Shown here: piece after piece, positions 1-59,888 of the stretch
Layout: every line of letters starts with the position of its first letter
Numbering within the stretch: position 1 is the first letter of the stretch
Made by a program: the position numbers and the translations under genes
The notes under the pieces: generated by a model
The model's input: the letters and a program-made list of their open reading frames with translations, nothing else
The model's database searches: none
What the model was told of the DNA's origin: nothing
NCBI GenBank assembly: GCA_963735095.1
Contig: CAVTJT010000014.1
Coordinates: forward strand, 268-64,267
DNA: 64,000 nucleotides
Source of the DNA: an uncultured beta proteobacterium
GTDB taxonomy: Bacteria > Pseudomonadota > Gammaproteobacteria > Burkholderiales > Burkholderiaceae_C
Direction of reading: 5' to 3'

Positions 1-671
1 AGGCCCAAATGGCCGGATTTACGGTCGTTGATTGCGCCACCGTCGTGGCGACCCACCTTTCACACTTGATGCAAGTGCATGCAGGCCGATTGCTCGGCCG
101 CGTCGAAACCCAATCGCTCGTCGAACACGTGACCAAGCTCGCGCCCAAACTGATCGAAGACGTGGTGCCCAAGATGGTGGGCATCGCCACCGTGCAGAAG
201 GTGTTGCAGCTGCTGCTCGAAGAGGGCGTGCACATCCGCGACATGCGCTCGATCACCGAGTGCCTGGCCGAACATGCCGCCACCGTGACCGACCCCGGCG
301 AACTGGCGCGCCGCATCCGCGTGCACCTGGCGCCGGCGATCGTGCACCAGATCTACGGCCCGGTGCGCGAGCTCGAAGTGATCGCGCTCGAACCCGACCT
401 GGAACGCCTGGTGACGCAGGCGCTGACGTCGCCGCACGGCGTGGCGCTCGACCCCGGCGTGGCCGACACGCTGTCGCGCGAGGCGGCCAACAGCGCCAAG
501 TACCAGGAAGACATGGGCCACCCGGCCTGCCTGCTGGTGCCCGATGCGATCCGCGCCGCGATGGCGCGCCTGCTCAAACGCTCGGCACCGCGCATGCGGG
601 TGCTGGGCCACAGCGAAATCCCTGAAACCCACTCGATCCGCATCGGTGCGGTCATCGGAGGTGCTGCATGA
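1..671 (+). CDS. flhA: Flagellar export apparatus protein FlhA, C-terminal cytoplasmic domain (5' end outside window)
   Basis: ORF 9..671 (VVPKMVGIATVQKVLQLLLEEGVHIRDMRSI...) resembles the conserved FlhA C-terminal domain. The frame is open to the window edge, and flhF/flhG/fliA follow. Confidence 0.9.
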   Translation, partial: AQMAGFTVVDCATVVATHLSHLMQVHAGRLLGRVETQSLVEHVTKLAPKLIEDVVPKMVGIATVQKVLQLLLEEGVHIRDMRSITECLAEHAATVTDPGELARRIRVHLAPAIVHQIYGPVRELEVIALEPDLERLVTQALTSPHGVALDPGVADTLSREAANSAKYQEDMGHPACLLVPDAIRAAMARLLKRSAPRMRVLGHSEIPETHSIRIGAVIGGAA

Positions 672-740
672 ACCCCCACGCTCACATTCGTTCGCTGCCC
701 CCCGAGGGGGCGCGCGCCTCCCTTGAGGCGGCTCGGCAGG
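668..740 (+). repeat. Palindromic intergenic element, copy A (short, 3' half diverged)
   Basis: Sequence is ATGAACCCCCACGCTC...GCTGCCCCCCGAGGGGGCG followed by the small stem CGCCTC/GAGGCG. Its ATGA overlaps the flhA TGA stop. It shares the core with copies at 10514, 13319, 37787, 40832 and 59376. Confidence 0.6.
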
Positions 741-746
741 AGGCGC

Positions 747-2282
747 ATGAACGTCAAACGCTTTATCGCCCGCAGTTCCCGCGAGGCCCTGAACCAGGTG
801 CGTATGGCCTTCGGCGCCGACGCCGTGGTGCTGTCCAACAAGCCGTGCGATGCCGGTGTCGAGGTGCTGGCGATGGCGCCCGAAGGCATCGCGCAGATCG
901 AGCAGGTGGCTGCGGTGGCGCCGCGCGAGATCGCGCCGGCGAACGCCGCACCGGCCAAGCAGGCCGCACAAGTGCCGGTCGAGCAGGACGTGCAACGACT
1001 GGCGATGAGCACGCTGTCGTTCCAGGACTATGTGCGCGAGCGCCTGTTGCGCCGCCGCCGGGCCGCGATGCAGCCCGAGGCGCCCGAGACCGTGATGCCC
1101 ACGTACGAAGAGCGCCACGCGCCGGTGGCCGCCGCACCGAGCATGCCGGCGCGCATCACGCCGCAACCGGTGCCGCCGGTCGCGCAGCAGCCGCACCGGT
1201 GCAACAGCCGATCGCCGCGCGCGCCCCGGCTGCGGCAACGACGTCGATGCAGCTCGCCGTGCCCGCGGCGCGCGAGCCGCTGCGCCTGCCCGAGTCGGTG
1301 CCGTCGCTGGCCGACCCCACGTCGGCGCAGCGCGAGCAAGCCGCCGTGATGAACGAACTTCGTCGAAGTCAAGGGGCTGATCGAAGACCGCTTCAGCGCG
1401 CTCGCCTTCATGGAGCAACTGCACCGCAACCCGCGCCAGTCGGCGCTGAGCCAGCGCCTGCTCGAGTCGGGCTTCTCGCCCGCGCTGGTGCGCAAGCTGG
1501 TCGAGCACCTGCCGGCCGATGCCACCGACGAGATCGCGTGGGCGCAAGGCGTGCTGTCGCGCAACCTGCAGACCGATGAAGCCTCGCTGCCGATCGAAGA
1601 CCTGGGCGGCGTGTATGCGCTGATCGGCGCCACCGGCGTCGGCAAGACCACCAGCACGGCCAAGATCGCGGCCTCGTTCGCGGCGCGCCACGGCGTGGCC
1701 AACCTCGGCCTGATCACGCTCGACGCCTACCGCCTGGGTGCGCACGAACAGCTGCGCGCCTATGGCCGCATCCTCGGCGTGCCGGTGCACACCGCGCACG
1801 ACCGCGCGTCGCTCGACGACCTGCTCGAACTGCTGGCTGGCAAGAAGCTGGTGCTGATCGACACCGCCGGCATGGCGCAGCGCGACCAGCGCACGCGCGA
1901 GCTGCTCGACATGCTGGCGCACCGCGCGATCCAGCGCCTGCTGGTGGTCAATGCCGCGTCGCAGGGCGAGACGGTCGAAGACGTGATGCAGGCCTACGGA
2001 GCCGCGCAGTGCCGCGGCGCCGTGCTGTCGAAGATCGACGAGGCGGTGAAGACCGCGCCGGCGCTCGATGCCTTGATCCGACACAAGCTGCGCGTGGTCG
2101 GCGTGGCCAACGGCCAGCGCGTGCCGGAAGACTGGCATCGCCTGTCCTCGCAGGCGCTGGTGCAGCGCGCGCTGCGTCCGGTCACCAGCCCCGCCTGGCG
2201 CGTGGAGCCGGGTGAAGTGAACCTGCTGTTCGCTGCCGCGCAACGTCCGGCGATGCCGGCCGCTGCAGCGGCGTGGCGCTGA
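747..2282 (+). pseudogene. flhF: Flagellar biosynthesis GTPase FlhF; reading frame interrupted twice as sequenced (shifts cancel)
   Basis: N-terminus MNVKRFIARSSREALNQVRMAFGADAVVLSN with GGAGG upstream. The SRP-type GTPase domain (GATGVGKTT, LIDTAGM) lies in ORF 1410..2282, in the same frame. The Pro/Ala linker and ...REQAAVMNEL read sensibly only in the frame of ORF 668..1579, between about 1150-1200 and about 1358. Confidence 0.85.
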
Positions 2283-3118: not shown

Positions 3119-3832
3119 ATGTACACCGCCAAGGGCCAGCTAACGGACTCCAACGCCCTGCTCAAGCAGTACAGCCCGCTGGTGCGCCGCCTCGCGCACC
3201 AGATGATCGCCAAGCTGCCTGCCAACGTGGAACTCGACGACCTGATCCAGGTCGGCATGATCGGGTTGAACGATGCGCTGTCGCGCTTCGATGCCAACCA
3301 GGGCGTGATGTTCGAGACCTTCGCCACCCAACGCATCCGCGGCGCGATGCTCGATGAGTTGCGCGGCGGCGACTGGATGAGCCGCGGCGACCGGCGCCAC
3401 CAGCGTTCGATCGAAGCCGCCGTGCACAAGCTCGAGCAGAAGTTGCAGCGCGCGCCCAACGAAAGCGAGATCGCCGACGAGATGGGCATGATGCTGGCCG
3501 ACTACCAGGAGTTGCTCGGCAAGGTGCGCGGCACGCAGCTGTTCTACCTGGAAGACCTGTCGGGCGACGAGGGCGACGACTTCCTCGATCGTCACGTGGC
3601 CGACGAAGGCGCCAACCCGCTCGACATGCTCGAAGACCATCGCATGCGCGAGGCACTGGTCGAGGCCATCGGCAAGCTGCCCGAGCGCGAGCAGCACGTG
3701 ATGAGCATGTACTACGAGCACGACATGAACCTCAAAGAGATTGCCGCTGTGCTCGGCGTGACCGAAAGCCGCATCTGCCAGCTGCACAGCCAGTCGATCG
3801 CACGCCTGCGCAGCAAGTTGCGCCAGTGGTGA
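3119..3832 (+). CDS. fliA: Flagellar sigma factor FliA (sigma-28)
   Basis: MYTAKGQL...LVRRLAHQM...FATQRIRGAMLDELR...MNLKEIAAVLGVTESRICQLHSQ shows sigma-70 regions 2-4. GGAGAG lies upstream of ATG 3119. Confidence 0.9.
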   Translation: MYTAKGQLTDSNALLKQYSPLVRRLAHQMIAKLPANVELDDLIQVGMIGLNDALSRFDANQGVMFETFATQRIRGAMLDELRGGDWMSRGDRRHQRSIEAAVHKLEQKLQRAPNESEIADEMGMMLADYQELLGKVRGTQLFYLEDLSGDEGDDFLDRHVADEGANPLDMLEDHRMREALVEAIGKLPEREQHVMSMYYEHDMNLKEIAAVLGVTESRICQLHSQSIARLRSKLRQW

Positions 3833-3866
3833 ACCGAAGACCCCTACACATCGAGGCAGTGCCACC

Positions 3867-5225
3867 ATGTTTGCTGTGTTTCGCAAATCCCCGCCAGTCG
3901 CCGTTGCCACGGCGGCCAACGACGGCGCCGTCACGCGCGACGGCCCCGACGTGCACACGCTGATCGTCGGCATCAACCGCGAGGCCTCCACGCTCGGCCG
4001 CGACGCCGCCGAAGTGCGCGGCGCCATCGACGACACCATCAAGGCCGCCGGCACGCAGGCGCAGCAGGTGCAGGCGTTGGCGCGCCAGCTCGGTGAAGTG
4101 AACCGCGGCCAGCACGCGATCGTCGAAGAAACGGGTCAGGGCGCGCAGGCGGTCGAGCGCGCGCGCAGCGCCATCCACGCCGTCGGCGGCGAGGTCTCGG
4201 GCATCGTCGCCACGCTGCGCGATGTGTCCAAGGCCGCGGGGCAGATCACCAAGATCGCGCTGCAGACCCGACTGGTCGCCTTCAATGCATCGGTCGAGGC
4301 CAAGCGGGCCGGCGAGGCCGGGCGCGGCTTCAGCGTGGTGGCCGATGCGGTGCGCGAACTGGCGTCGAAGGTCGACGAATCGTCGCGCAACATCATGGAG
4401 ACCGTGGGCCAGCTCGATGCACGCGTCGAGACGCTGGCGCGCGAGATCCAGCGCCAGGACCACGGCCAGGCGCAAGGTGCGGTGCACCAGGCGCTCGACG
4501 AACTGGTGCAAGGCGTGCAGCGCATCAACGCCGCCGCGGCCAAGAGCCAGGAGATGTGCGGCGGCCTGGATCGCCGCATGGGCGAGATCGAGCGCGAGAT
4601 GCACGGCACCCACGGCACGCTGTCGTCGACCTTGCAGCGCACGGAGGCCTTTTTGCGCGTGTCGGAGCGGCTGATCGAAGTGACCGCCGCGTGCGGCATC
4701 GAAACCGCGGACTCCAGATTCATCGGGGCGGCGCAGGACGCCGCCGGCCGCATCGGCGCGCTGCTGTCGCAGGCGTTGCACGAAGGCCGCACCACGCTCG
4801 ACGAGCTGTTCGACGAAAAGTACGTGCCGATCCCCGGCACCGAGCCGCAGCAGCACTCGACGCGCTTCGCCAAGCTCGCCGATCGCCTGTTCCCGGCGGT
4901 GCAGGAATCATTGCTCGGCTTGGACCCGCAGGTGGTGTTCTGCATCGCAGCGGATCGCAACGGCTACATCGCGTGCCACAACCAGAAGTACAACCACACG
5001 CAGCGTCCCGGCGACGTGGTGTGGAACACCGCCAACTGCCGCAACCGCCGCATCTTCAACGACCGCACCGGCCTGGCGTCGGCGCGCAACACCAAACCGT
5101 TCCTGCTGCAGACCTACCGCCGTGACATGGGCGGCGGCCAGTTCGTGCTGCTCAAGGAAGCCGCCGCGCCGATCACCGTGAACGGCCGCCATTGGGGCGG
5201 TCTGCGCCTGGCCTACCGGTTCTAG
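3867..5225 (+). CDS. Soluble methyl-accepting chemotaxis-like protein (N-terminal MCP signalling domain, C-terminal uncharacterised sensory-like domain)
   Basis: IALQTRLVAFNASVEAKRAGEAGRGFSVVADAVRELA is the MCP signalling hairpin. No hydrophobic TM segment is seen. The C-terminal ~150 aa (DRNGYIACHNQKY...CRNRRIFNDRTG...GRHWGGLRLAYRF) is a conserved block I cannot assign to a named family. Confidence 0.75.
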   Translation: MFAVFRKSPPVAVATAANDGAVTRDGPDVHTLIVGINREASTLGRDAAEVRGAIDDTIKAAGTQAQQVQALARQLGEVNRGQHAIVEETGQGAQAVERARSAIHAVGGEVSGIVATLRDVSKAAGQITKIALQTRLVAFNASVEAKRAGEAGRGFSVVADAVRELASKVDESSRNIMETVGQLDARVETLAREIQRQDHGQAQGAVHQALDELVQGVQRINAAAAKSQEMCGGLDRRMGEIEREMHGTHGTLSSTLQRTEAFLRVSERLIEVTAACGIETADSRFIGAAQDAAGRIGALLSQALHEGRTTLDELFDEKYVPIPGTEPQQHSTRFAKLADRLFPAVQESLLGLDPQVVFCIAADRNGYIACHNQKYNHTQRPGDVVWNTANCRNRRIFNDRTGLASARNTKPFLLQTYRRDMGGGQFVLLKEAAAPITVNGRHWGGLRLAYRF

Positions 5226-9644: not shown

Positions 9645-10055
9645 ATGCAACGGCTCACCGATGCGCTCGACTTCCAGACCCAGGCCCTGGTGCTGCGCGC
9701 CGAGCGCCAGCGCCTGATCGCCAGCAACATCGCCAACGCCGACACGCCGGGCTACGTGGCGCGCGACATGGACTTCGCGCGCGCGCTGCGCGAGGCCACC
9801 GGCCAGGCCGTCGGCCGCGGCCGTGAAGACGACGCAGGCCGGCCACATCCCGGTCGGCCGGCGGCGCCCGCGGCCGAGGCGCAGCTGCTGTACACGCGGC
9901 CGGCGCAGAACAACCTCGACGGCAACAGCGTCGACATGGACCGCGAGCGCGCGGCGTTCGCCGACAACACGGTGAAGTACGAAGCCACGCTGCGCTTCAT
10001 CAACGGCACCGTGCGCACGATGCTCGATGCGATGAAGTCGCACAACCAGGCCTGA
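9645..10055 (+). CDS. flgB: Flagellar proximal rod protein FlgB
   Basis: MQRLTDALDFQTQALVLRAERQRLIASNIANADTPGY...DGNSVDMDRERAAFADNTVKYEATLRF. The ORF is intact, but see the finding on 9816..9861. Confidence 0.9.
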   Translation: MQRLTDALDFQTQALVLRAERQRLIASNIANADTPGYVARDMDFARALREATGQAVGRGREDDAGRPHPGRPAAPAAEAQLLYTRPAQNNLDGNSVDMDRERAAFADNTVKYEATLRFINGTVRTMLDAMKSHNQA

Positions 10056-10513: not shown

Positions 10514-10595
10514 ATGAAACAGCCCCCACGCTCGCTCCGCTCGCTGCCCCCCGAGGGGGCGCGTCAGTGCCTTCGGGCGGCCGGGCGCCACTGAC
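10514..10595 (+). repeat. Palindromic intergenic element, copy B
   Basis: ATGAAACAGCCCCCACGCTCGC...GCTGCCCCCCGAGGGGGCG, then stem GTCAGTG/CACTGAC around loop CCTTCGGGCGGCCGGGCGC. It ends 1 nt before the flgD ATG. Confidence 0.75.
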
Positions 10596-11246
10596 ATGGC
10601 CACCAACCCGATCTCATCGAACAGCGGCACCGGCGCCGCCGCGACCACGAGCAATGCCGCGGCCAACGCCAACAGCGAGGACCGCTTCCTCAAGCTGCTG
10701 GTGGCGCAGCTGCAGAACCAGGATCCGCTCAACCCGATGGACAACGCGCAGGTCACGAGCCAGATGGCGCAGATCCAGACCGTGAGCGGCATCGAGAAGC
10801 TGAACTCGACCGTGCTCGGCCTGAATGCGCAGTTCGCGCAGCTGCAGACGCTGGGCGGCGCCGCGCTGGTCGGCCGCCACGTGCTGATCGAAGGCAACCG
10901 CATGGTGGCCGCCGACGGCGCGGGCCATGGCGGCTTCGAGCTCGCCTCGCAGGCCGATCGCGTGAAGCTCGAGGTGCTCGATGGCGCCGGCCGCGTGATC
11001 GACACCGTCGATCTCGGTGCCCATGCGAGCGGCCGCCACAGCTTCGACTGGATGCCGCCGGCCGGCGTCGATGCCGCCCAGGCAACCAAGTTCCGCATCA
11101 CCGCGACCCTGGGCACCACGGCCGTGGCGACCACCACCTACACGCGCGACCGAGTGGACGCCGTGAGCGCCGGCGCCGAAGGCCTGGTGCTGGAGCTGGC
11201 AATGCCGGCCCGGTGGGCTACGACAAGGTCAAGGTCTTCGATTGAG
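10596..11246 (+). pseudogene. flgD: Flagellar hook capping protein FlgD; one frame break near 11200
   Basis: DRFLKLLVAQLQNQDPLNPMDNAQVTSQMAQIQTVSGIEKL is the FlgD signature. After ...LVLELA the FlgD-like ending NAGPVGYDKVKVFD-stop (11244..11246) is in the next frame. Confidence 0.85.
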
Positions 11247-11295: not shown

Positions 11296-12560
11296 ATGAG
11301 TTTCCAACAAGGTTTGTCCGGCCTGAACGCCACCGCCAAGAGCCTCGAGGTGATCGGCAACAACATCGCCAACGCGGCCACGCCGGGCGCCAAGGCCGCG
11401 CGCGCCGAGTTCTCCGACGTGTACGCCGCCGCGCTCAACGGCGCCGGCGCCAACCCGATCGGCATCGGTGTCAACCTCGCGTCGGTGTCGCAGCAGTTCA
11501 CGCAGGGCAACATCCTGACCACCGAGAACCCGATGGACCTGGCCATCAACGGCAACGGGTTCTTCCAGGTGACCGACGGCAACAACCCGGTGACCTACAC
11601 GCGCAACGGCCAGTTCAAGATCGACCGCGACGGCTACATCATCAACAACCAGCTGCAACGCCTGCTCGGCTATCCCGCCGACGGCACCGGCGCGATCCAG
11701 CCCGGCGCGGCGCGCGCGCTGCAACTGCCCACCTCGGGCATCAACCCGCAGGTGTCGAGCGCGATCGACATGGAGTTCAACCTCGACTCGCGCGTCGGCA
11801 ACACGGCGCCCACCGCGGGCGCGCAGATCAACTTCGCCGATGCGAGCACCTACAACAACGCCACCTCGCTCAACGTGTACGACCAGCGCGGGCAGGACGT
11901 GGCGCTGACGTTCTACTTCCAGAAGTCGGCCACCGACACCTGGAACGTGTTCGTCACCGCCAACGGCACCACGGTGGGCGGCACGGCCTTGGCGCCGACG
12001 CCGATCACGACCATGACCTTTCCGGCCAGCGGTGCGGCGCCGACCGCGCCGAGCACGCCGATCACGCTGAACATTCCGGCATCGACCAACGCCAACGGCG
12101 CCGCGACGCTGCGCGATTCCCGGCATCCAGCTCGACCTGACCAGCGCCACGCAGTTCGGCGCCGGCTTCGGCGTGACCGACATGTCGCAGGACGGTTTCG
12201 CACCGGGCCAGCTGAACAGCATCGCGATCGAGAGCAACGGCATCGTGATGGCGCGCTATTCCAACGGCCAGAGCCGTCCGGCCGGCCAGATCGAGATCGC
12301 CTCGTTCCGCAACCCGCAGGGCCTGCAGCCGCTGGGCGGCAACGCCTGGGGCCGCAGCTTCACCTCGGGCGACGCCGTGCTCGGCACGCCGGGCACCGGC
12401 AACTTCGGGCGTGCTGCAGTCGGGCGCGCTGGAGGAGAGCAACGTCGACCTGACGGGCGAGCTGGTCAACATGATCACCGCGCAACGCATCTACCAGGCC
12501 AACGCGCAGACCATCAAGACCATCGACCAGACGATGCAGACGCTGGTCAACATGCGCTGA
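11296..12560 (+). pseudogene. flgE: Flagellar hook protein FlgE; two frame breaks (about 12113 and 12407-12409)
   Basis: N-terminus MSFQQGLSGLNATAKSLEVIGNNIANA. The middle ([49 protein letters not shown]) is in the frame of ORF 12173... The C-terminus ([49 protein letters not shown]-stop at 12558) is in the third frame. Total length is not a multiple of 3. Confidence 0.9.
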
Positions 12561-12590: not shown

Positions 12591-13322
12591 ATGCGCATGG
12601 ACCGCATGATCTACCTGTCGATGACGGGCGCCAAGGCGACCATGCAACGCCAGGAGGTGCTGGCGCACAACCTGGCCAACGCCTCGACGCCTGGCTTTCG
12701 CGCCGAGCTCACCGCGTTTCGCGCCGTGCCGGTGCTTGGGCAAGGGGCAGCGACGCGCGTCTACGCGCTCGAGTCGACGCCGGGCTACAACGCCGAGCCG
12801 GGCGCGGTGCAGGCCACCGGGCGCAACCTCGACGTGGCGATGAAGGGCAACACCTGGCTCGCCGTGCAGGGGCTCGACGGCACCGAGGCCTACACGCGCA
12901 CCGGTGCGCTCGACGTCAACAACGAAGGCGTGCTGATCACCAAGACCGGCCTCACGGTGCTGGGCGATGGCGGGCCGATCACGGTGCCCGCCAATGCCCA
13001 GGTTCAGATCGCGCCCGACGGCACGATCAGCGCCGCGGTCGGCAACGCCAAACCGCAGTCGGTGGGCAAGCTCAAGCTGGTGACACCCGAGGCGCCATTG
13101 CAGCGCGGCGAGGACGGCTTGTTCCGCGCTGCCAACGGCGACCTGTCGGCCGACCCCGAGGCGCGCGTGCAGGACAGCGCGCTCGAAGGCAGCAACGTCA
13201 GCCCGGTCGAAACGATGATCGCGATGATCGCGGCCGCGCGCCAGTTCGAGCAGCAGATGAAGATGGTGCACAGCGCGCAGGAAAAAGAGCAGGCCGGCAC
13301 CAAGCTGCTGTCGAATGGTTGA
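12591..13322 (+). CDS. flgF: Flagellar proximal rod protein FlgF
   Basis: [37 protein letters not shown]...[28 protein letters not shown]. Confidence 0.9.
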
Positions 13323-13408
13323 CCCCCACGCTTGGCGCTGCGCGCCTGCGCTGCCCCCCGAGGGGGCGCAGCCCGGCTTGGGACGGCCCGGCGCCGGGCT
13401 GGGCTGAC
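13319..13408 (+). repeat. Palindromic intergenic element, copy C
   Basis: TTGACCCCCACGC...GCTGCCCCCCGAGGGGGCG, then stem CAGCCCGG/CCGGGCTG around loop CTTGGGACGGCCCGGCG. Its TGA is the flgF stop. Confidence 0.75.
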
Positions 13409-13519
13409 CCGCGCGGTTACCTTCACCCGCAAGAAGCGCTGCCTCGGCAGCGCTTTTCGCCTTATCGGCGGCCTCAAGGCCGGCGGATCATCGTTCCACA
13501 CTTCCGTGGAGCCACGGCC

Positions 13520-15019: not shown

Positions 15020-16195
15020 TTGCACATGAACACCACCCAGTACGACACTCAGTTCGAGCTGCCGACACCGCAACCGAGCGAGCGCGCGCTGACGCGGCTG
15101 GTGTGGTTGGTGGTGGCACTCGCCGGCCTGCTGCTGTGCTGGCCCACGCACGCTGCGCGCATCAAGGAAGTGGCCAGCGTGCAAGGCGTGCGCTCCAACC
15201 AGCTCACCGGCTATGGCCTGGTGGTCGGCCTCGACGGCACCGGCGACCAGAGCTCGCAGGCGCCGTTCACCGCGCAAAGCATCATCGCCATGCTGCAGCA
15301 GATGGGCGTGAGCCTGCCCAGCGGCACGCAGATGCAGCTGCGCAACGTGGCCGCGGTGGTGGTCACCGCCGAGCTGCCGGCATTTGCGCAGCCCGGCCAG
15401 CGCATCGACACCACGGTGTCGTCGATCGCCAATGCCAAGAGCTTGCGCGGCGGCACCTTGATCGCCACGCCGCTGAAAGGCGCGGACGGCCAGATCTACG
15501 CATTCGCGCAGGGCAACCTGGTGGTCGGCGGCGCCGGCGCGGCGGCCGGCGGGTCCAGCGTGCAGATCAACCACCTGCTGGCCGGGCGCGTGCCGCAGGG
15601 CGCGACCGTGGAGCGCTCGGTACCCACGCCGCTGCAGCAGGGTGACTGGCTGCAGCTCGACTTGAATGCGGCCGACTTCGCCACTGCGCGCGAAGTGGCG
15701 CGCACGATCAACGCCGCCAAGGGCAACGGCACCGCACAGGCGCTCGACGGCCGTGTGGTGCGCGTGCGCATGCCCGGCGAGCCCGACGAACGCGTGGCCT
15801 TCCTGGCCGATATCGAGAACCTGGCGGTGGCATTGCCGCGGCCAGCCGCCAAGATCGTGCTCAACGCGCGCACTGGCTCGGTGGTAATGAACGAGGCGGT
15901 GACCTTGGGCGCCTGCGCGGTGGCGCATGGCGCGCTGTCGGTGACGATCAGCTCCACGCCGGTGGTCAGCCAGCCGGCGCCGTTCAGCAACAGCGGCCGC
16001 ACCGTGCACACCGAGCAGGCCGACATCTCGATCACCACACAAAGCGGCTCGCTGATGCAGATGAAGGCCGGCGCCGACCTCGGCGAGGTGGTGAAGGCGC
16101 TCAACACCATGGGCGCCACGCCGCAAGCACTGTTGGCGATCCTGCAGGCGATGAAGAGCGCCGGCGCGTTGAACGCCGAGATCGAGGTGATATGA
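15020..16195 (+). CDS. flgI: Flagellar P-ring protein FlgI
   Basis: RIKEVASVQGVRSNQLTGYGLVVGLDGTGDQ...LGEVVKALNTMGATPQALLAILQAMKSAGALNAEIEVI. Confidence 0.95.
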   Translation: MHMNTTQYDTQFELPTPQPSERALTRLVWLVVALAGLLLCWPTHAARIKEVASVQGVRSNQLTGYGLVVGLDGTGDQSSQAPFTAQSIIAMLQQMGVSLPSGTQMQLRNVAAVVVTAELPAFAQPGQRIDTTVSSIANAKSLRGGTLIATPLKGADGQIYAFAQGNLVVGGAGAAAGGSSVQINHLLAGRVPQGATVERSVPTPLQQGDWLQLDLNAADFATAREVARTINAAKGNGTAQALDGRVVRVRMPGEPDERVAFLADIENLAVALPRPAAKIVLNARTGSVVMNEAVTLGACAVAHGALSVTISSTPVVSQPAPFSNSGRTVHTEQADISITTQSGSLMQMKAGADLGEVVKALNTMGATPQALLAILQAMKSAGALNAEIEVI

Positions 16196-16318
16196 ACCCA
16201 CCCCCGATGCGGCCTGGCGGCCGCCTCCCCCTCAAGGGGGCGCCGCCAGCGGACCGGCAAAGCCGGATCCGCGGCGTCCGCTTGGCTTCGAGCGTGCAAC
16301 GCCTGGTGGGGCGCGCCT
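16192..16318 (+). repeat. Palindromic intergenic element, copy D (long variant)
   Basis: ATGAACCCACCCCCGATGCGGCCTGGCGGCCGCCTCCCCCTCAAGGGGGCGCCGCCAGCGGACCGGC...GCCGGATCCGCGGCGTCCGCTTGG. It is nearly identical over about 95 nt to the copy at 26020. Its ATGA overlaps the flgI stop. Confidence 0.75.
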
Positions 16319-33174: not shown

Positions 33175-33630
33175 TCAGGCCTTCTGGCTCGGGTGCACGC
33201 AGTTGTCGACCATGCGCTGGCCGATCTTGCTGTTCATCAGCATCGACTTGTTGGCGATCTGCAGCCACATCATGCCGTTCTTCTTGTCCTCCAGGCGCAC
33301 GGCGCCGGTGGTGGTGGTCTCAGGCGCCATCAGATACGACTTGCCCTTGTATTCGACGTTGAACCAGCCCTTCCGATTCGGCACCGCGGCGACGTTGACC
33401 GCTTGGTCGAACTCGCAACGCGATTGGCCGGTCAGCACGCGATCGGCGGTGTTGATTTGATCGGCCGACAGCGCGGCCGGTTGCTGGGCGGCCGGCTTCG
33501 CGGCCGGTTGCTGGGCAGCCGGCTTCGCGGCTTGCTTGGTCGGCTGCTTGGCTTTTTCGGTGGCCACTGCGCTCAGCGGCGCAGCGATCGACAACGCGGC
33601 AGCGATCGCGACGAAGGTCAGGCGTTTCAT
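33175..33630 (-). CDS. Secreted protein of unknown function, paralogue 1
   Basis: Signal peptide MKRLTFVAIAAALSIAAPLSAVA, then a Lys/Ala/Pro/Gln-rich linker. The C-terminal ~95 aa is shared with 33808..34332 (ADRVxTGQxxCEF...PEETTTGAxRLEDKK...WLQIxxKSMLMNSKIGQRMVDNCxHP). A strong AAGGAGAG RBS is present. Confidence 0.7.
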   Translation of the reverse strand: MKRLTFVAIAAALSIAAPLSAVATEKAKQPTKQAAKPAAQQPAAKPAAQQPAALSADQINTADRVLTGQSRCEFDQAVNVAAVPNRKGWFNVEYKGKSYLMAPETTTTGAVRLEDKKNGMMWLQIANKSMLMNSKIGQRMVDNCVHPSQKA

Positions 33631-33807: not shown

Positions 33808-34332
33808 TTACGGTTTGCGTTCGGGCGCTGCTGCTGCGCCTTCGACCGCTCGCACGGCCGCGCGCTGCTCGGGGTGCAGGCAGTTGTCGACCATGCGCTG
33901 GCCGATCTTGCTGTTCATCAGCATCGACTTCGACGGGATCTGCAGCCACACGATGCCGGCCTTCTTGTCTTCGAGCCGCAGCGCACCGGTGGTGGTTTCC
34001 TCCGGCACCACGGTGTAGTTGACGTTCTTGAACTTCAACCGGAAGTGGCCCGGGCGATCGGCGATGCGATCGAGGTCCACCACTTGGTTGAACTCGCACG
34101 CCGCCTGCCCGGTGTGCACACGATCGGCGATCTGCAACTGCGCTTCGCTGACTCGCTGCACGGTCTCGGTGGCCAACGCCATGCCTTTGGCCTTGTCGGC
34201 CCGTTGCTGGGCGGCCGACGGCTTGGCCGGCTTAGAGGCCTTGGGCTTCTCATCGGCCGCATGCGCGATCGGCGCCGCGAGTCCCGCGCACAGGATGCTG
34301 AAGACGACGAGGTGTGCCGATGCGAGTTTCAT
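33808..34332 (-). CDS. Secreted protein of unknown function, paralogue 2
   Basis: Signal peptide MKLASAHLVVFSILCAGLAAPIAHA with a GGAGGAG RBS. It has the same conserved C-terminal domain as 33175..33630, including a run of about 50 identical nucleotides. Confidence 0.7.
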   Translation of the reverse strand: MKLASAHLVVFSILCAGLAAPIAHAADEKPKASKPAKPSAAQQRADKAKGMALATETVQRVSEAQLQIADRVHTGQAACEFNQVVDLDRIADRPGHFRLKFKNVNYTVVPEETTTGALRLEDKKAGIVWLQIPSKSMLMNSKIGQRMVDNCLHPEQRAAVRAVEGAAAAPERKP

Positions 34333-37769: not shown

Positions 37770-37790
37770 TATGAGCCTGTACTGATATGA
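37759..37790 (+). repeat. Perfect 16-bp tandem duplication GCCTGTACTGATATGA x2 spanning the sdhC stop codon
   Basis: 37759..37774 and 37775..37790 are identical. The first unit holds the last sdhC codons plus the stop. The second unit runs into element copy F. Confidence 0.85.
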
Positions 37791-37868
37791 AACTGCCCCC
37801 ACGCTCGCTGCCGCTCGCTTCCGCCCAAGGGGCCGGTCAGTGGCTTCGGACGGCCGGGCGCCACTGAC
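37787..37868 (+). repeat. Palindromic intergenic element, copy F
   Basis: ATGAAACTGCCCCCACGCTCGC..., then stem GTCAGTGG/CCACTGAC around loop CTTCGGACGGCCGGGCG. It ends 6 nt before the sdhD ATG. Confidence 0.75.
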
Positions 37869-37874
37869 ACCGCC

Positions 37875-38237
37875 ATGGCCCAAAACTTCGGATCCAAACG
37901 TTTGGTGGTTGGCGCGCACTATGGCCTGCGTGACTGGCTGAGCCAGCGCGTCACGGCCGCGCTCATGGCGGTGTACACGCTGCTGCTGCTGGCGCAGCTG
38001 ATCTTCGGCCCCAAGCTCGGCTACGAGCGCTGGTCGGCGATCTTCTCGCAGCAGTGGATGCGCTTTGCGACCTTCGTGGTCATCGTCTCGCTGGCCGTGC
38101 ATGCCTGGGTCGGCATGCGCGACATCTGGATGGACTACATCAAGCCGGTCTGGCTGCGCCTGGCGCTGCAAGTGGCCACCCTCGTCTGGCTCGTCGGTTG
38201 CACCGGCTGGGCGCTGCAGGTCCTGTGGAGGCTTTGA
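37875..38237 (+). CDS. sdhD: Succinate dehydrogenase hydrophobic membrane anchor subunit
   Basis: GAHYGLRDWLSQRVTAALMAVYTLLLL...HAWVGMRDIWMDYIKP, positioned between sdhC and sdhA. Confidence 0.9.
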   Translation: MAQNFGSKRLVVGAHYGLRDWLSQRVTAALMAVYTLLLLAQLIFGPKLGYERWSAIFSQQWMRFATFVVIVSLAVHAWVGMRDIWMDYIKPVWLRLALQVATLVWLVGCTGWALQVLWRL

Positions 38238-40043: not shown

Positions 40044-40835
40044 ATGACAGCCGCCGCCCCTGAAGCCGTCGCCGCACCCCCGGCATCGGAAAGCACCTAC
40101 CTGAACTCGCGCTTCGAGCGCGTGCCCAAGCTCAACAAGCGCACCTTTCAGATCTACCGCTACGACCCCGACCGCGACGAGCGGCCGCGCATGCAGACGA
40201 TCGAGCTCGACCTCGACGGCTCCGAGCGCATGCTGCTCGACGCGCTGATCAGGTTGAAGTCGGTCGACCCGAGCTTCAGCTTCCGGCGCTCGTGCCGCGA
40301 AGGCGTGTGCGGGTCGGACGCGATGAACATCAACGGCAAGAACGGGCTGGCCTGTTTGACCAACCTGCGGCGGCTGCCAGACCCGATCGTGCTCAAGCCA
40401 CTGCCCGGGCTGCCGGTGGTGCGCGACCTGATCGTCGACATGACGCTGTTCTTCAAGCAGTATCACTCGATCAAGCCGTACCTCGTCAACGACGAGGTGC
40501 CGCCCGAGAAAGAGCGACTGCAGTCGCCCGAGCAGCGCGACGAGCTCAACGGCTTGTATGAATGCATCCTGTGCGCGAGCTGCTCCACCAGCTGCCCGAG
40601 CTTCTGGTGGAACCCCGACAAGTTCGTCGGCCCGGCCGGCCTGCTGCAGGCCTACCGCTTCATCGCCGACAGTCGCGACCAGGCCACCGGCGAGCGGCTC
40701 GACAACCTCGAGGATCCGTACCGGCTGTTCCGCTGCCACAGCATCATGAATTGCGTCGATGTCTGCCCCAAGGGCCTCAACCCCACGGCGGCCATCGGCA
40801 AGATCAAAGAGCTGATGGTGCGCCGGGCGGTATGA
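40044..40835 (+). CDS. sdhB: Succinate dehydrogenase iron-sulfur subunit
   Basis: SCREGVCGSDAMNINGKNGLAC...CILCASCSTSCPSFWWN...CHSIMNCVDVCPKGLNP. Confidence 0.95.
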   Translation: MTAAAPEAVAAPPASESTYLNSRFERVPKLNKRTFQIYRYDPDRDERPRMQTIELDLDGSERMLLDALIRLKSVDPSFSFRRSCREGVCGSDAMNINGKNGLACLTNLRRLPDPIVLKPLPGLPVVRDLIVDMTLFFKQYHSIKPYLVNDEVPPEKERLQSPEQRDELNGLYECILCASCSTSCPSFWWNPDKFVGPAGLLQAYRFIADSRDQATGERLDNLEDPYRLFRCHSIMNCVDVCPKGLNPTAAIGKIKELMVRRAV

Positions 40836-40912
40836 ACGAGCCCCCACGCTCACTGCGTTCGCTGCCCCCGGGGGCGTGCAGTCGGCTTGGGAGCGGCCCG
40901 GCGCCGACTGAC
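40832..40912 (+). repeat. Palindromic intergenic element, copy G
   Basis: ATGAACGAGCCCCCACGCTCAC...GCTGCCCCCGGGGGCG, then stem CAGTCGG/CCGACTG around loop CTTGGGAGCGGCCCGGCG. Its ATGA overlaps the sdhB stop. Confidence 0.75.
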
Positions 40913-40926
40913 CGCGCACGCCGCCC

Positions 40927-46621: not shown

Positions 46622-46650
46622 CGCGGACCCCATCGGTTCCAAGACCCCGA

Positions 46651-47962
46651 TCATTCCACGTCGCGCGCCAATCGCACGCCGCTGAACTGCCAGCGGGCAT
46701 CAGTGGGAAAGAAGTTGCGGTAGCTGGCGCGGACGTGCGAACGCGGCGTGGCGCACGAGCCGCCGCGCAGCACGTATTGGTTGACCATGAACTTGCCGTT
46801 GTACTCGCCGACCGCGCCGTCCCAGGCCTTGAAGCCGGGGTAAGGCGCGTAGCTGCTCGAGGTCCATTCCCACACGTCGCCGAACATCTGCACCGGCGCA
46901 GCCGTGCCCACGCGTGCCACCGGCATCGGGTGCAGGGCCTGCGACTCGACGAAATTGCCGCCGGCGCAGGCCGTGGAAGGCAGGCCCTGCGCCGCGTGTT
47001 CCCACTCGAATTCGGTGGGCAGCCGCGCGCCGCGCCACGCGCTGCGCTGCGCTGCGGCCCAGCGTGCGAACGCATCGGCCTCGAAGTAGCTCACGTGGGT
47101 GATCGGCGTGTGCGGATCGATCGGCGCCAGCCCGTGCAACGTGAAGCTGAGCCACTGGCCGCGTTCGTCGCGCCGCCAGTACATCGGCGCGCGCACCTGT
47201 TGGCTGCGCACCCAATCCCAGCCCGCCGACAGCCACCAGCGCGGCTCGGTGTAGCCGCCGTCGGCGACGAACTCGGCCCATTCGCCATGCGTGACCAGCC
47301 GGTTGCCGAGCGCGTAGGGCCGCAGGTGCTGCCGGTGGCGCGGGCGTCTCGTTGTCGAACGCAAAGCCGGCGCCGTCGTGGCCGATCTCGACCAGCCCGC
47401 CGGACTGTTCGATCCAGGTCATCGGCAGCGGCGCCACCGGCGCGAGCGGCCACGATCCGCGGTACACCGGCGCCAGCGGGTTGCACGACAGCACGTGCTT
47501 GATGTCGGTGAGCAGCAGCTCCTGGTGCTGTTGCTCGTGTTGCAGGCCGAGTTCGACCAGCATGTCGATGGCCGGATCGTGCGCGTCGGCCAGCAGGCCG
47601 GCCACACGCTGGTCGACCTGGGCGCGATAGGCCTTGACCTCGGCCAGGCTGGGGCGCGACACCAGGCCCCGTTGCGCCCGCGGATGCTGCTCGCCGACCT
47701 GGTTGTAGTAGCTGTTGAACAGCACGCGAAACCGCGGATGGAAGGGCCTGAAGCCGCGCTCGTGGCGCTCGAGGATGAAGGTCTCGAAGAACCACGTCAC
47801 GTGCGCGAGGTGCCACTTGGTCGGGCTCACGTCGGGCATCGACTGCACCTGTGCATCGGCCTCGCTCAGCGGCTCGGCCAGCGCAAGCGACTGTGCGCGC
47901 ACCTGCGCATAGCGCTGGGCGAGCGCGCTCGGCTCGATCTGGGGATTGGGCAGTCGTTTCAT
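46651..47962 (-). pseudogene. egtB: Ergothioneine biosynthesis sulfoxide synthase EgtB (DinB_2 + FGE-sulfatase domains); one frame break at 47342-47344
   Basis: The N-terminal part has SPTKWHLAHVTWFFETF...LGLQHEQQHQELLLTDIKH...GFAFDNETP. The C-terminal part ([25 protein letters not shown]...GDVWEWTSS...[10 protein letters not shown]) is in ORF 46651..47364. The join falls in a GGG/CCC run. Confidence 0.85.
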
Positions 47963-47978
47963 GGTGGGTCCTGTCGCT

Positions 47979-48603
47979 TCAGCGGTCGCGCTTGACGCCA
48001 CAGGCGATGTAGCCCATGCCGAATTGCGTCGTCCAGCGCTGCAACGATTGGCAATACGTTTCGATCCGGTCCCATGGATGCCAGAGATCACCGGGTTTGG
48101 CGTTGTAGGGCCGGTTCTTGAGCCACGTGTAGATGTTGAGCGGCCCGGTCCACCACGGGAAGTACTTGATGCCCGCAACGGCAATGCGCGCGCCCGGCTT
48201 CACCTGGCGCATCAGATTGGTCAGCGCCTCGTGCGAGCGCAGGATGTCGTGGGTGTAATTGAACAGCACCGCGTCGGCCGGCTCGGGCAGTCGCACGGTC
48301 TCTGCCGAGCGCACAAACGTGCCACACGTTGCGCCAGCGCTCACGGTCCACCCGAAGGGCCGCTTGCGCGAACATGTCGGGACTTTGCTCGAACGCGACC
48401 ACACGGCCCGCCTCGCCGACGCCATCGCGCAGCAACGGATAACTCAAGCCCGTGCCCGCACCGACGTCGAGCACGACCTGCCCCGGTTGCAGCCGCAGCA
48501 GCGCGATGGTGCGCCGGCGCAGCGGCATCGTGTACTGCGCCGACTCGTCGTAGCTGGCGGCGCGCCGCTTGTAGCGCTCGATCGACAGCTCGTTGGGCGT
48601 CAT
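47979..48603 (-). pseudogene. Class I SAM-dependent methyltransferase; one frame break at 48315-48317
   Basis: The SAM-binding motif VLDVGAGTGLS is in ORF 48088..48603. The C-terminal half (...ADAVLFNYTHDIL...GARIAVAGIKYFPWW...) is in ORF 47979..48425. The join falls in an AAA/TTT run. Confidence 0.7.
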
Positions 48604-57755: not shown

Positions 57756-57763
57756 GTGCACGC

Positions 57764-59888
57764 ATGTTCACGAAGATCCTGATCGCCAACCGCGGCGAGA
57801 TTGCCTGCCGGGTCATCAAGACCGCGAAGAAGATGGGCATCGCCACGGTCGCGGTGTATTCCGAGGCCGACCGCGACGCGATGCACGTGGATCTGGCCGA
57901 TGAAGCGATCCTGATCGGTCCGGCGCCGTCGCGCGAGAGTTACCTGGTGGCCGACAAGATCATCGACGCCGCCAAGAAGACGGGCGCGCAGGCCATTCAC
58001 CCCGGCTACGGTTTCCTCAGCGAGAACGAAGACTTCGCGCGCCGCGTCGAGGAGCAGGGCCTGGTGTTCATCGGCCCCAAGCACCACAGCATCGCGGCGA
58101 TGGGCGACAAGATCGCGTCCAAGAAGCTGGCGCAGCAGGCCAAGGTCAACACCATCCCGGGCTACAACGACGTGATCGAGTCGCCCGAAGCGGCGGTGAA
58201 GATCGCCAGGGACATCGGCTATCCGGTGATGATCAAGGCCAGCGCGGGCGGCGGCGGCAAGGGCCTGCGCGTGGCGCACAACGACGCCGAGGCGTTCGAC
58301 GGCTTCAGCTCCTGCCGCAACGAGGCGAAGGCGAGCTTCGGCGACGACCGCGTGTTCATCGAGAAGTTCGTCGAGAGCCCGCGCCACATCGAGATCCAGG
58401 TGATGGGTGACGCGCACGGCAACGTCATCTACCTCAACGAGCGCGAGTGCTCGATCCAGCGCCGCCACCAGAAGGTGATCGAGGAGGCGCCGTCGCCGTT
58501 CATCAGCGAGGCCACGCGCAAGGCGATGGGCGAGCAGGCGGTCGCGCTGGCCAAGGCGGTGAACTACCAAAGCGCCGGCACCGTGGAGTTCGTGGTCGGC
58601 AAGGACCAGAGCTTCTACTTTCTCGAGATGAACACGCGGCTGCAGGTCGAGCACCCGGTCACCGAGTGCATCACCGGGCTCGACCTCGTCGAGTTGATGA
58701 TCCGCGTCGCGGCGGGCGAGAAACTGCCGCTGAAGCAAGCCGACGTGCAGCGCAACGGCTGGGCCATCGAGTGCCGAATCAACGCCGAGGATCCGCAGCG
58801 CAACTTCCTGCCCTCGACCGGCCGGCTGTCGCGTTACCTGCCGCCGCGCACCACGATGCAGGCGGCAGCGGCCATGCCCAAGGAGGGCGGCGTGCGGGTG
58901 GACACCGGGGTCTACGAAGGCGGCGAGATCCCGATGTACTACGACTCGATGATCGCCAAGCTGATCGTGCACGGCAGCGACCGCGCCCAGGCGATCGCGC
59001 GCATGCGCGAAGCGCTCAACGGCTTCGTGATCCGCGGCATCTCCAGCAACATCGCATTCCAGTCGGCGCTGCTGGCGCACCCGAAGTTCGCGGCCGGCGA
59101 CTTCAACACCGGCTTCATCGCCGAGCACTTCGCGCATGGCTTTCGCATGTCCGACGTGCCGCACAGCGACCCGCTGTTCCTGGTGGCGATGGCGGCGTTC
59201 GTGCGGCGCAAGGCGCGCGAGCGCTCGGCCGGCATCAGCGGCCAGCTCGCGGGTCACGGCGTGAAGAACCGCCCGACCTGGTGGTGGTGGTGATCAAGCC
59301 CGACGGTGCACACGAGCACCACGCGGTGCGCGTCGAAGACTTCGATCCGGTCGCAGCCAAGGCGGACGTGGTGATCGAGGAATCCGCCCCCGTCGCTCGG
59401 CAAGCCGAGCCGTCCCCCAAGGGGGAACTCCGGCCTTGGGGCGGCCCGGCGGCCGGCGCCATTTCGCGATCCAGAGCCCGACGCAGCTTGGCGACATCCT
59501 GGTCAATGGCACCTGCAACGGCAAGCCATTCACCGCGCAGATCGAACGCGGCAGCGCCAAGCACCCGTTGGGCATCCGCGTCACCCACAACGGTCTGCAG
59601 ATCGAAGCGTTGGTGCTGTTGCCGCGCGCGGCGGAGCTGCTGAAGCTGATGCCGCACAAGGCAGCGCCCGACCTCAGCAAGTTCCTGCTGTCGCCGATGC
59701 CGGGTTTGCTGGTCGACGTGGCGGTGCAGCCGGGCCAGAAGGTGATGGCCGGAGAGCGGCTCGCGGTGATCGAAGCGATGAAGATGGAGAACATCCTCAC
59801 GGCCACGCAAGACGGCGAGGTGCGCGAGGTGCTGGCCAAACGCGGCGAGAGCCTGACGGTCGACCAACCGATCCTGGCATTCGTCTGA
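57764..59888 (+). pseudogene. pccA: Propionyl-CoA carboxylase alpha (biotin carboxylase + biotinyl carrier) subunit; frame changes near 59265 and again within or after an inserted repeat at 59376..59460
   Basis: The BC domain [25 protein letters not shown]...[14 protein letters not shown] is in ORF 57725..59293. The linker [27 protein letters not shown]... is in the frame of ORF 58447... The biotinyl domain with EAMKMEN is in ORF 59436..59888. So three frames are used. Confidence 0.9.
59376..59460 (+). repeat. Palindromic element, copy H, located inside the pccA reading frame
   Basis: GGAATCCGCCCCCGTCGCTCGGCAAGCCGAGCCGTCCCCCAAGGGGGAACTCCGGCCTTGGGGCGGCCCGGCGGCCGGCGCC aligns along its length with intergenic copies B, C, F and G. 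It keeps the CCCCC-AA-GGGGG hairpin and the CCGGCC/GGCCGG stem around TTGGGGCGGCCCGGC. Confidence 0.65.

Follow-up and report, generated by a model that had tools for sequence, protein, structure and literature searches.

The subject here is a short palindromic element lying within pccA, in a stretch of 64,000 nucleotides (the window) from contig CAVTJT010000014.1 of an uncultured beta proteobacterium, where the genes for a methylmalonyl-CoA mutase, MeaB, pccB, pccA and an epimerase follow one another. The element is probably a copy of the Beta-proteobacterial repeat element (BRE), set in sense orientation in the part of pccA encoding the BT domain and translated when the gene is intact. As sequenced, pccA is distributed over three frames of the forward strand. 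Its first segment (57764..59271, +) covers the biotin carboxylase domains together with the beginning of the BT domain, ending at a first missing base; tblastn with the intact PccA of a related locus (L082) places residues 1-516 on 57764-59281 in frame 2. This first −1 frameshift (59271..59272, +; AACCG^CCCGAC) is outside the element, leads to a premature TGA at 59291-59293 and corresponds to an A that is present in loci L081 and L088, the 1-nt gap after 59271 being seen against these two and five more distant relatives, and so against all relatives aligned. The second segment (59272..59380, +) encodes BT-domain strands as far as ...ADVVIE, its frame-B translation of 36 residues aligning with orthologues, and this frame reads ...ADVVIEE before running on into the inserted element. 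The third segment (59457..59888, +; tblastn frame 3, residues 533-717) contributes the BT remainder and the biotinyl (BCCP) domain, carrying ...RRHFAIQSPTQLG... and the biotinyl motif as far as the stop at 59888. Each of the two breaks is a −1 shift, the second within the C-run of the element at 59414-59418, and the frame analysis bears out the remark of the initial annotation that the downstream part of pccA is one base out of register. Once the frame is restored, Pfam finds Biotin_carb_N, CPSase_L_D2, Biotin_carb_C, PCC_BT (473-633) and Biotin_lipoyl (644-705), giving the domain order BC - BT - BCCP of PccA, with a match to 3N6R chain A at E 2.8e-236; the host region of the element, previously described as a linker, is by Pfam the PCC_BT domain (PF18140).

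Alignment with orthologues that lack the element places it at 59381..59454 (+, sense), a 74-column gap against these empty sites with boundaries good to about ±2 nt, and at the DNA level it lies between ATCGAGG and GGCGCCATTTC. The insert measures 74 nt in the window, 75 nt (25 codons) in intact relatives and 78 nt in L087, and since 74 is 3n+2 its length as sequenced accounts for the second frameshift. Among the matches listed all 18 of the 18 reference-genome orthologues read VVI-x-x-RHFAIQS with nothing between, the best of these genome loci being only 75% identical to the window; the closest pccA loci in the same set belong to Rubrivivax-named metagenome-assembled genomes (MAGs) and Comamonadaceae, and the database protein names are Burkholderiaceae and Ideonella. 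The 25-residue insert is absent from 109 of the 121 closest database proteins, three of which (P0031, P0072 and P0109) have 4-6 residues there where 2 are usual. The modal PccA length is 683 aa, the empty state, which equals 708 minus 25, and the solved structure 3N6R and all outgroups are without the inserted segment. That this piece of pccA is an inserted element copy, as was first proposed, is upheld by the empty-site orthologues and by its match to the repeat family of the window, with the extent now refined to 59381..59454; the orthologue alignment that had been suggested as a check finds the segment absent in more than 100 orthologues. A comparison of filled and empty junctions (ATCGAGG|insert|GGCGCC against ATCGAGG|GCCGCC) gives no target-site duplication of the kind looked for in MITEs (small transposable elements with inverted repeats), beyond a trivial GG (at most 2 nt), and no convincing terminal inverted repeats at the pccA junction.

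A database search with the frame-restored PccA protein, in which carriers were called by motif, returned eleven intact PccA proteins (708-742 aa) with 25, and once 26, extra residues at exactly the same codon, among them P0001 (insert ESAPVARQAEPSPQGGTPALGRPGG), P0024, P0034 and P0081. The P0001 insert equals the second frame of the window as far as ...PSP and the third frame from PQGG... onward, and because it spans both frames the slip is placed inside the element. The peptide SAPVARQAEPSPKGELRPWGGPAAGA that the initial annotation had read from the upstream frame is consequently wrong after ...PSP, the real peptide being ESAPVARQAEPSPQGGTPALGRPGG, since the slip falls in the C-run of the element. 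Over 2237 nt the window and L081, the contig of P0001, share 98.2% identity, interrupted by exactly two 1-nt gaps in the window: the A missing after 59271 and a C missing from the run at 59414-59418. When both bases are restored a 708-aa open reading frame (ORF) results that is 99.0% identical to P0001 with no gaps. The earlier idea of an in-frame insertion combined with base-call error is thus the one supported, by the intact proteins of relatives, with two bases missing instead of one. A tryptic peptide predicted for the insert-bearing PccA is QAEPSPQGGTPALGR.

Within the protein the insert falls inside PCC_BT (PF18140, residues 473-633), and the region is passed over when HMMER aligns the protein with 3N6R chain A. 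In an AlphaFold2 model of P0001, with a mean pLDDT of 70.6, a helix at 441-462 is followed by eight strands, the insert being coil at 510-534 (pLDDT <50 over 512-533) between strands 503-509 and 535-541. The BT domain is built as a long helix inside an eight-stranded barrel, and a 'hook' leading from the helix to the first strand contacts the beta subunit (PMC4673880). Taken with this architecture, the modelled position of the insert points to an extension of the beta3-beta4 turn, away from the hook, and the 25 extra residues would convert a 2-residue turn between BT strands 3 and 4 into a disordered surface loop. Given a loop away from the beta-subunit hook, and from the conservation of the frame in eleven sequences, the insert-bearing PccA is expected to stay functional.

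The two missing bases are best seen against the condition of the window as a whole, in which at least seven frameshifts, insertions and deletions both, occur in five unrelated genes (pccA included). The flgE gene (11296-12560) extends over three frames, with shifts near 12100 and 12380, the FlgE_D2 profile being split into 1-98 and 118-142 and Flg_bbr_C lying in the third frame; an EgtB-like gene (46650-48200, minus strand) has DinB_2 and FGE-sulfatase in different frames, the shift falling at 47350-47400; a DUF481 gene has profile positions 2-104 and 99-210 in different frames and one extra window base relative to L088 near 60886; and the methylmalonyl-CoA mutase is split into ORFs of 304 aa and 432 aa by a frameshift near 53800. 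The coding signal, measured as GC at third codon positions (GC3), continues undiminished past every shift, and across mutase-MeaB-pccB 3811 nt align to the close relative L088 without a gap. Given such similar frameshifts in unrelated genes, the two bases missing from pccA are most likely assembly or base-call errors and not decay. Disruption of pccA by the element, the other explanation offered at the outset, loses ground on the same account and because the insert is 75 nt and in frame in relatives. Elsewhere in the window 672-1349, 1353-2282 and 2283-2882 are consecutive stop-to-stop open frames in the same frame, with strong coding signal and single stops between, and may be adjacent genes or a product of in-frame nonsense errors.

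It is also conceivable, if unlikely, that pccA together with the methylmalonyl-CoA pathway has really been inactivated, with the deletions in pccA (two) and in the mutase (one) genuine and with slippage at the C-run within the element contributing to the loss of the gene. The premature TGA at 59291 and the two −1 shifts in the gene as sequenced would fit this, as would the frameshift near 53800 in a mutase of the same pathway, the plausibility of the hairpin C-run as a slippage site and the location of the first deletion outside any homopolymer. Against it stand the shifts in flgE (two), the EgtB-like gene and the DUF481 gene, all unconnected to propionate metabolism, the undiminished GC3 signal after each shift, the intact state of pccB, MeaB and the epimerase gene, and a 98.2% identity to an intact environmental copy that, apart from the two gaps, comes with no further lesions.

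The repeat family to which the pccA insert belongs has five other copies in the window that define it, all on the forward strand and scored here with covariance model R1: 664..757 (99.4 bits), 10514..10606 between flgC-like and flgD-like genes (106.1 bits), 13314..13409 directly after an flgF-like stop codon (59.4 bits), 37787..37879 (86.4 bits) and 40832..40918, the ATGA of which overlaps the upstream stop codon (75.9 bits). Both R1 and a sequence profile (nhmmer) were made from these five non-pccA copies only. With the nhmmer profile the pccA segment comes out as the best match apart from the members themselves, strand and register agreeing (13.0 bits, E 0.0046), the next-best match in the window having 4.1 bits and E 2.8, and R1 matches the pccA segment at full length at 59378-59470 with 37 bits and E 4e-5. 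All six carrier lineages (seven loci, L081-L087) are matched by R1 at 30-42 bits and none of the empty pccA genes is; another 1.26 Mb of Burkholderiales DNA yielded only 3 matches at E<0.1, and so R1 is specific. The similarity to the intergenic copies, for which chance resemblance of GC-rich sequence had been raised as a possible explanation, therefore goes beyond chance. R1 matches have a GC content of 0.69-0.79, all window copies found by R1 are single and without tandem arrays, and five to six of them are intergenic, at or just after stop codons, with one inside pccA. An Rfam scan of the whole window at gathering threshold gave no match, and so the element is without a curated RNA family.

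The non-pccA copies, here counted at 668, 10514, 13315, 16192, 37787 and 40832, lie on the gene-sense strand at most 20 nt after the upstream stop; most start with ATGA and three overlap the stop codon. A short ORF begins in every one of them, such as MKQPPRSLRSLPPEGARQCLRAAGRH, whose end lies 1 nt ahead of the next gene's ATG at 10596, and these ORFs could be translationally coupled mini-ORFs or merely the element consensus. The LGRPG frame of these ORFs is the frame used in pccA. A second element subtype, ATGA(A)CCCACCCCCGATGCG...CCGCCAGCGGACCGGCAAAGCCGGATCCGCGGCGT, is found at window 16192-16284.

Three hairpins, all kept in the pccA inserts, can be read along the pccA copy. The left one, read from the sequence as GCTCGGC-AA-GCCGAGC (59395..59410, +), is kept in L086 with one compensated pair, and the other family copies have different hairpins at this position. 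The central one is CCCCC-AA-GGGGG in the window (59414..59425, +) and in pccA inserts generally CCCCCC-RA-GGGGG, the C-run at 59414-59418 having 5 C against 6 in relatives; it corresponds to helix 1 of the family structure, which is 89% paired over 14 copies. The 3' hairpin (59430..59456, +), which encodes ...PALGRPGGR, consists of an outer stem CCGGCC/GGCCGG and an inner stem TTGGG/CCCGG with loop GCGG and a bulged C at 59450; its inner part is conserved among pccA inserts and its outer stem variable, as in L083 (CCGGTC/GACCGG), where the compensated change alters two amino acids (A->V, G->D), and in L086 (GGTGCGCC/GGCGCACC). It comprises helices 2 and 3 of the family, 85% and 98% paired, with 10 of 12 pairs changed on both sides. 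When the 14 copies are aligned to the model, pairing holds in 91% of cells as against 77% in shuffles and 42-52% with partners slid, and both-side changes occur in 12 of 21 pairs, pairing counts that lean towards structure because the alignment is model-fitted.

Folding energy of single copies is uninformative at this GC content (shuffle z −1.7 to +0.2), and the bulk folding-energy tests were replaced by a helix-specific test of the pairs at the positions given by the model. Each carrier forms 17-18 of 19-20 pairs, whereas resampling of synonymous codons gives 11.6-13.9. Summed over six carriers there are 105 canonical pairs against 78.0 ± 3.5 in a fixed register, with none of 2000 nulls reaching 105, and when the null is allowed register shifts the same 105 compares with 90.0 ± 3.1 (z 4.8, again 0 of 2000, individual p 0.02-0.12). 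The hairpins of the element are thus retained at synonymous codon positions within pccA, a result that is supportive and not decisive since the carriers are non-independent. Such retention may come from a constraint at the nucleic-acid level that persists inside coding sequence, or else from an allele refreshed from intact copies.

Of the 121 sequences 12 are carriers, found at no fewer than 10 separate positions on a neighbour-joining (NJ) tree of PccA, each beside 683-aa sisters, and by parsimony this tree calls for 10 gains from an empty root or for 36 losses after a single gain. The pccA inserts score 37-70 among themselves and 17-33 against non-pccA copies, those of their own genome included. 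Insert and flanks are on average equally diverged across carriers (identity 0.78 vs 0.79), with the window-L082 pair at 0.93 in the insert and 0.79 in the flanks. Carriers also share the flanking codon states E...RR where even sister empties have G-x...R, a difference that neither plain insertion nor plain deletion yields. The clustering of the inserts, the equal average divergence and these flanking states are together best explained by allelic replacement through homologous recombination. With carriers that are scattered and yet form one cluster by insert sequence, a single origin reshuffled by recombination or loss is favoured. The pccA insertion allele would on this evidence have arisen once and now exist as a presence/absence polymorphism among related Burkholderiales, the reshuffling being due in the main to homologous recombination with empty alleles, to deletion, or to both.

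Around the site, sliding identity between the window and L088 is a mosaic of long 100% stretches beside 95% windows; a clean identity step between the two at two element sites was considered and rejected, the sliding profile having none at the insert. The near flanks of the window are closer to those of other carriers than the flanks of L088 are by +0.02 to +0.05, a weak signal without direction. A metagenome scan for the pccA-type pattern, in a collection with few such organisms, gave one match only, L089, which is not pccA and has the same left hairpin; with this copy and the window-L082 pair in view, some mobility is conceivable. Among the proteins of intermediate length at the site, P0072 (RAAGG) and P0109 (GTDG) stand beside P0031 (locus L090), which has 6 residues instead of 2 (VVIDNGTPDGRRHF), shows the RR junction typical of carriers and may be what is left of an insert after partial deletion. 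As a deletion footprint P0031 was nonetheless set aside: VVIDNGTPDGRRHF keeps the carrier-type CGG CGC CAC junction, but its remaining 12 nt are too loosely element-like for a call.

If instead BRE were mobile now or had been so recently, it could have entered the same codon some ten times, in sense and in frame, and the 10 gains against 36 losses on the PccA tree, the 93% identity of the window and L082 inserts within flanks that are 79% identical, a second BRE-like element present or absent in the pccB-pccA spacer between 98%-identical relatives, BRE copies immediately following the pccA stop in two other genomes and the non-pccA copy in L089 with the same left hairpin all incline that way. 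We hold repeated insertion to be quite improbable, as the pccA inserts cluster together and not with the intergenic copies of their own genomes, average insert divergence equals that of the flanks (0.78 vs 0.79), the shared flanking codon states of carriers differ from those of empty sisters in a manner that simple insertion would not bring about, any target-site duplication is at most 2 nt and terminal inverted repeats are lacking, and BRE has no known mobilising enzyme (PMC3110155). A bolder proposal, which we put forward very tentatively, is that BRE is selected at the nucleic-acid level within coding sequence and also repeatedly enters and leaves the same pccA codon by a site-specific or hairpin-dependent mechanism. 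Were it true, pccA would be a natural in-frame 'landing pad', and the roughly ten scattered carrier lineages, the amino-acid-altering compensatory stem changes (L083) and the turnover of the second element would be signs of ongoing activity.

That the 25 residues are a lineage-specific native BT loop with a chance GC-rich likeness to the repeat is effectively refuted, for although BT-domain sequences are poorly conserved and of variable length (PMC4673880) and 4-6 residues stand at the site in a few proteins, the covariance model gives 30-42 bits at the exact site in all carriers with only 3 other matches in 1.26 Mb, all family helices are kept in the insert with compensatory changes, and all outgroups and 3N6R are without the segment.

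The family itself seems to be that described as BRE by Hot et al. (2011, BMC Genomics 12:207; PMC3110155; reviewed in PMC3184786), a repeat of ~90 bp (75-91) and ~69% GC found in Bordetella and Comamonadaceae, mostly between genes, with some copies overlapping ORF ends by a few bases and some wholly in coding sequences (PMC3110155; PMC3184786). No function is assigned to it and no mobilising enzyme is known (PMC3110155). The initial annotation had thought a translated insertion unusual for this lineage, a view that is not supported, BRE having been reported from Bordetella and Comamonadaceae since 2011 (PMC3110155; PMC3184786), with some copies in coding sequences. Read as its reverse complement, the published BRE of B. 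pertussis has the same block order as the window family, namely CCCCCACGCT, a small variable hairpin, GCTGCCCCCCGAGGGGGC and GCCTTGGGCGGCCCG. When the window is searched with a profile of 16 Bordetella BRE copies the top five matches are four window copies and then the pccA site, all in register (E 0.0021 for the copy at 10517, then 0.13, 0.21 and 0.34, and 0.72 for pccA), and pccA inserts of other loci rank next, E-values overall running from 0.002 to ~9. The weakness of these values is attributed to the A/T-run spacers of the Bordetella copies, which the window copies do not have. The thresholds of Hot et al. were a YASS score >50 together with an identity >70% to their reference copy from B. 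pertussis. Aligned locally to the reverse complement of that reference, the copies at 10514 and 13324 are 0.73-0.74 identical over 78-84 nt, three other window copies 0.66-0.68 and the pccA copy 0.76 over only 46 nt, the overall range being 0.66-0.81; the best copies of the family reach this identity, and the pccA copy is tied in through R1 (37 bits). Length and GC agree with the BRE values of ~75-91 bp and ~64-79% (the insert is 74-78 nt, and the R1 matches have GC 0.69-0.79), the hosts are Betaproteobacterial chromosomes (the closest pccA loci being in Rubrivivax-named MAGs and Comamonadaceae), and the window copies are mostly intergenic, at or just after stop codons, with one inside pccA. 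Tandem arrays, which are frequent in Bordetella and not universal, were not found among the window copies, all of these being single.

Several points weigh against a translated BRE copy of single origin in a gene that is in truth intact. Membership in BRE rests on a chain from the pccA insert to the window family and from there to BRE, the direct match of pccA to the Bordetella profile being weak (E 0.72). The synonymous-site hairpin test uses a model-fitted alignment and non-independent carriers, and the minimum free energy of the coding inserts does not differ significantly from a synonymous-codon null (z −1.5 to +1.1). We infer the function of the insert-bearing enzyme from reading-frame conservation alone. 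The first missing base lies outside any homopolymer, a frameshift is likewise found in the mutase, as real decay of their common pathway would have it, and assembled sequence by itself cannot prove the missing bases to be errors. On the NJ tree 36 losses or replacements are called for by a single origin, as compared with 10 gains, and recombination tracts around the site are weakly evidenced, with no direction given. On balance a sense-oriented BRE copy in the BT-domain part of pccA, translated in the intact state, remains the probable account.

Other insertions are seen in and around the same operon. The second element subtype fills the pccB-pccA spacer of ~130 nt in L082 and L083 (~9865-9990) and in L088 (~3808-3940) and is absent from the pccB-pccA gap of the window (8 nt, 57756-57763), though L088 is 98% identical in pccB, and so this spacer element is a second presence/absence polymorphism in the operon. 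In L031 (Serpentinimonas) a full BRE follows the pccA stop at 10536-10623 (+) and is itself followed by a partial copy running into the epimerase start, and in L049 (6260-6356, minus strand) a BRE directly after the pccA stop is antisense to pccA, and hence the sense orientation of BRE is not absolute. MazE/PIN toxin-antitoxin pairs lie between mutase and MeaB and between pccB and pccA in L087 (6083-6740 and 9320-9987), and a PhoD gene lies between pccA and the epimerase gene in L085 (12133-13206) and L086 (12169-13299). The gene junctions of the mutase-MeaB-pccB-pccA-epimerase operon seem prone to insertions. Elsewhere in the window a direct repeat of 139 nt (33191-33329 and 33872-34010, 85% identical and 681 nt apart) and nearby tandem units of 27 nt (CGGCCGGTTGCTGGGCGGCCGGCTTCG; 33447-33553 and 34197-34249) are probably repetitive coding sequence in two neighbouring genes.

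For annotation, pccA of the window is better entered as an intact gene with a translated repeat insert, pending confirmation at read level, than as a gene killed by an element, and the many frameshifts of the window are a matter of data quality, a window-wide indel problem. The BRE family and the occurrence of BRE copies inside genes are already known, and a repeat of a Rubrivivax-like genome is now tied to this family described in 2011. As far as the literature searched shows, the in-frame conservation of the insert, the retention of hairpins at synonymous sites and the patchy distribution at a single codon are new; no pccA insertion, no in-frame conservation across lineages and no such presence/absence polymorphism was found there, the gene list in Table S4 of Hot et al. 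being illegible, and no later work on BRE was found in the same literature. With one 25-codon element present or absent at one codon of a core enzyme in close and distant relatives, nature has provided an experiment that could show if selection acts on these repeats as structures in RNA or DNA, how they come and go, and how large an insertion can be borne by a conserved beta-barrel turn.

Among known systems, REP/BIME (repetitive extragenic palindromic sequences and bacterial interspersed mosaic elements, served by REP-associated tyrosine transposases, RAYT) and MITEs are likewise short, GC-rich and hairpin-forming and lie mainly between co-directional genes near stop codons. REP sequences are palindromes of 20-40 nt marked by a conserved 5' tetranucleotide, in genomes that have a RAYT gene. 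In contrast the pccA element, of 75-90 nt, is built of two or three separate hairpins and of long single-stranded blocks that are conserved; no GTAG/CGTC tag was seen in it by eye, and no transposase associated with it was identified in the work on the window, none, RAYT included, having been searched for. Rickettsia palindromic elements (RPEs) are similar in function, being palindromic repeats in frame within housekeeping or metabolic genes whose translated peptide is compatible with the fold. They are 100-150 bp long and restricted to Rickettsia (Ogata et al. 2000, via PMC10969869 and PMC3184786), are set apart by the description in these reviews as unrelated in sequence, and occupy many sites in one genome, whereas the pccA insert is one site polymorphic across many lineages. 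The likeness to BRE is the closest, and extends to shared blocks in the order CCCCCACGCT, small variable hairpin, GCTGCCCCCCGAGGGGGC and GCCTTGGG(G)CGGCCCG, to a length of 75-91 bp and a GC content of ~69-79%, to Burkholderiales hosts including Comamonadaceae, and to a mostly intergenic placement that often overlaps ORF ends by a few bases and is at times inside coding sequence. Where the Bordetella copies have A/T-run spacers and tandem arrays (VNTR, tandem repeats that vary in number), the copies of the window are single and have GC-rich, copy-specific stems in place of the A/T runs.

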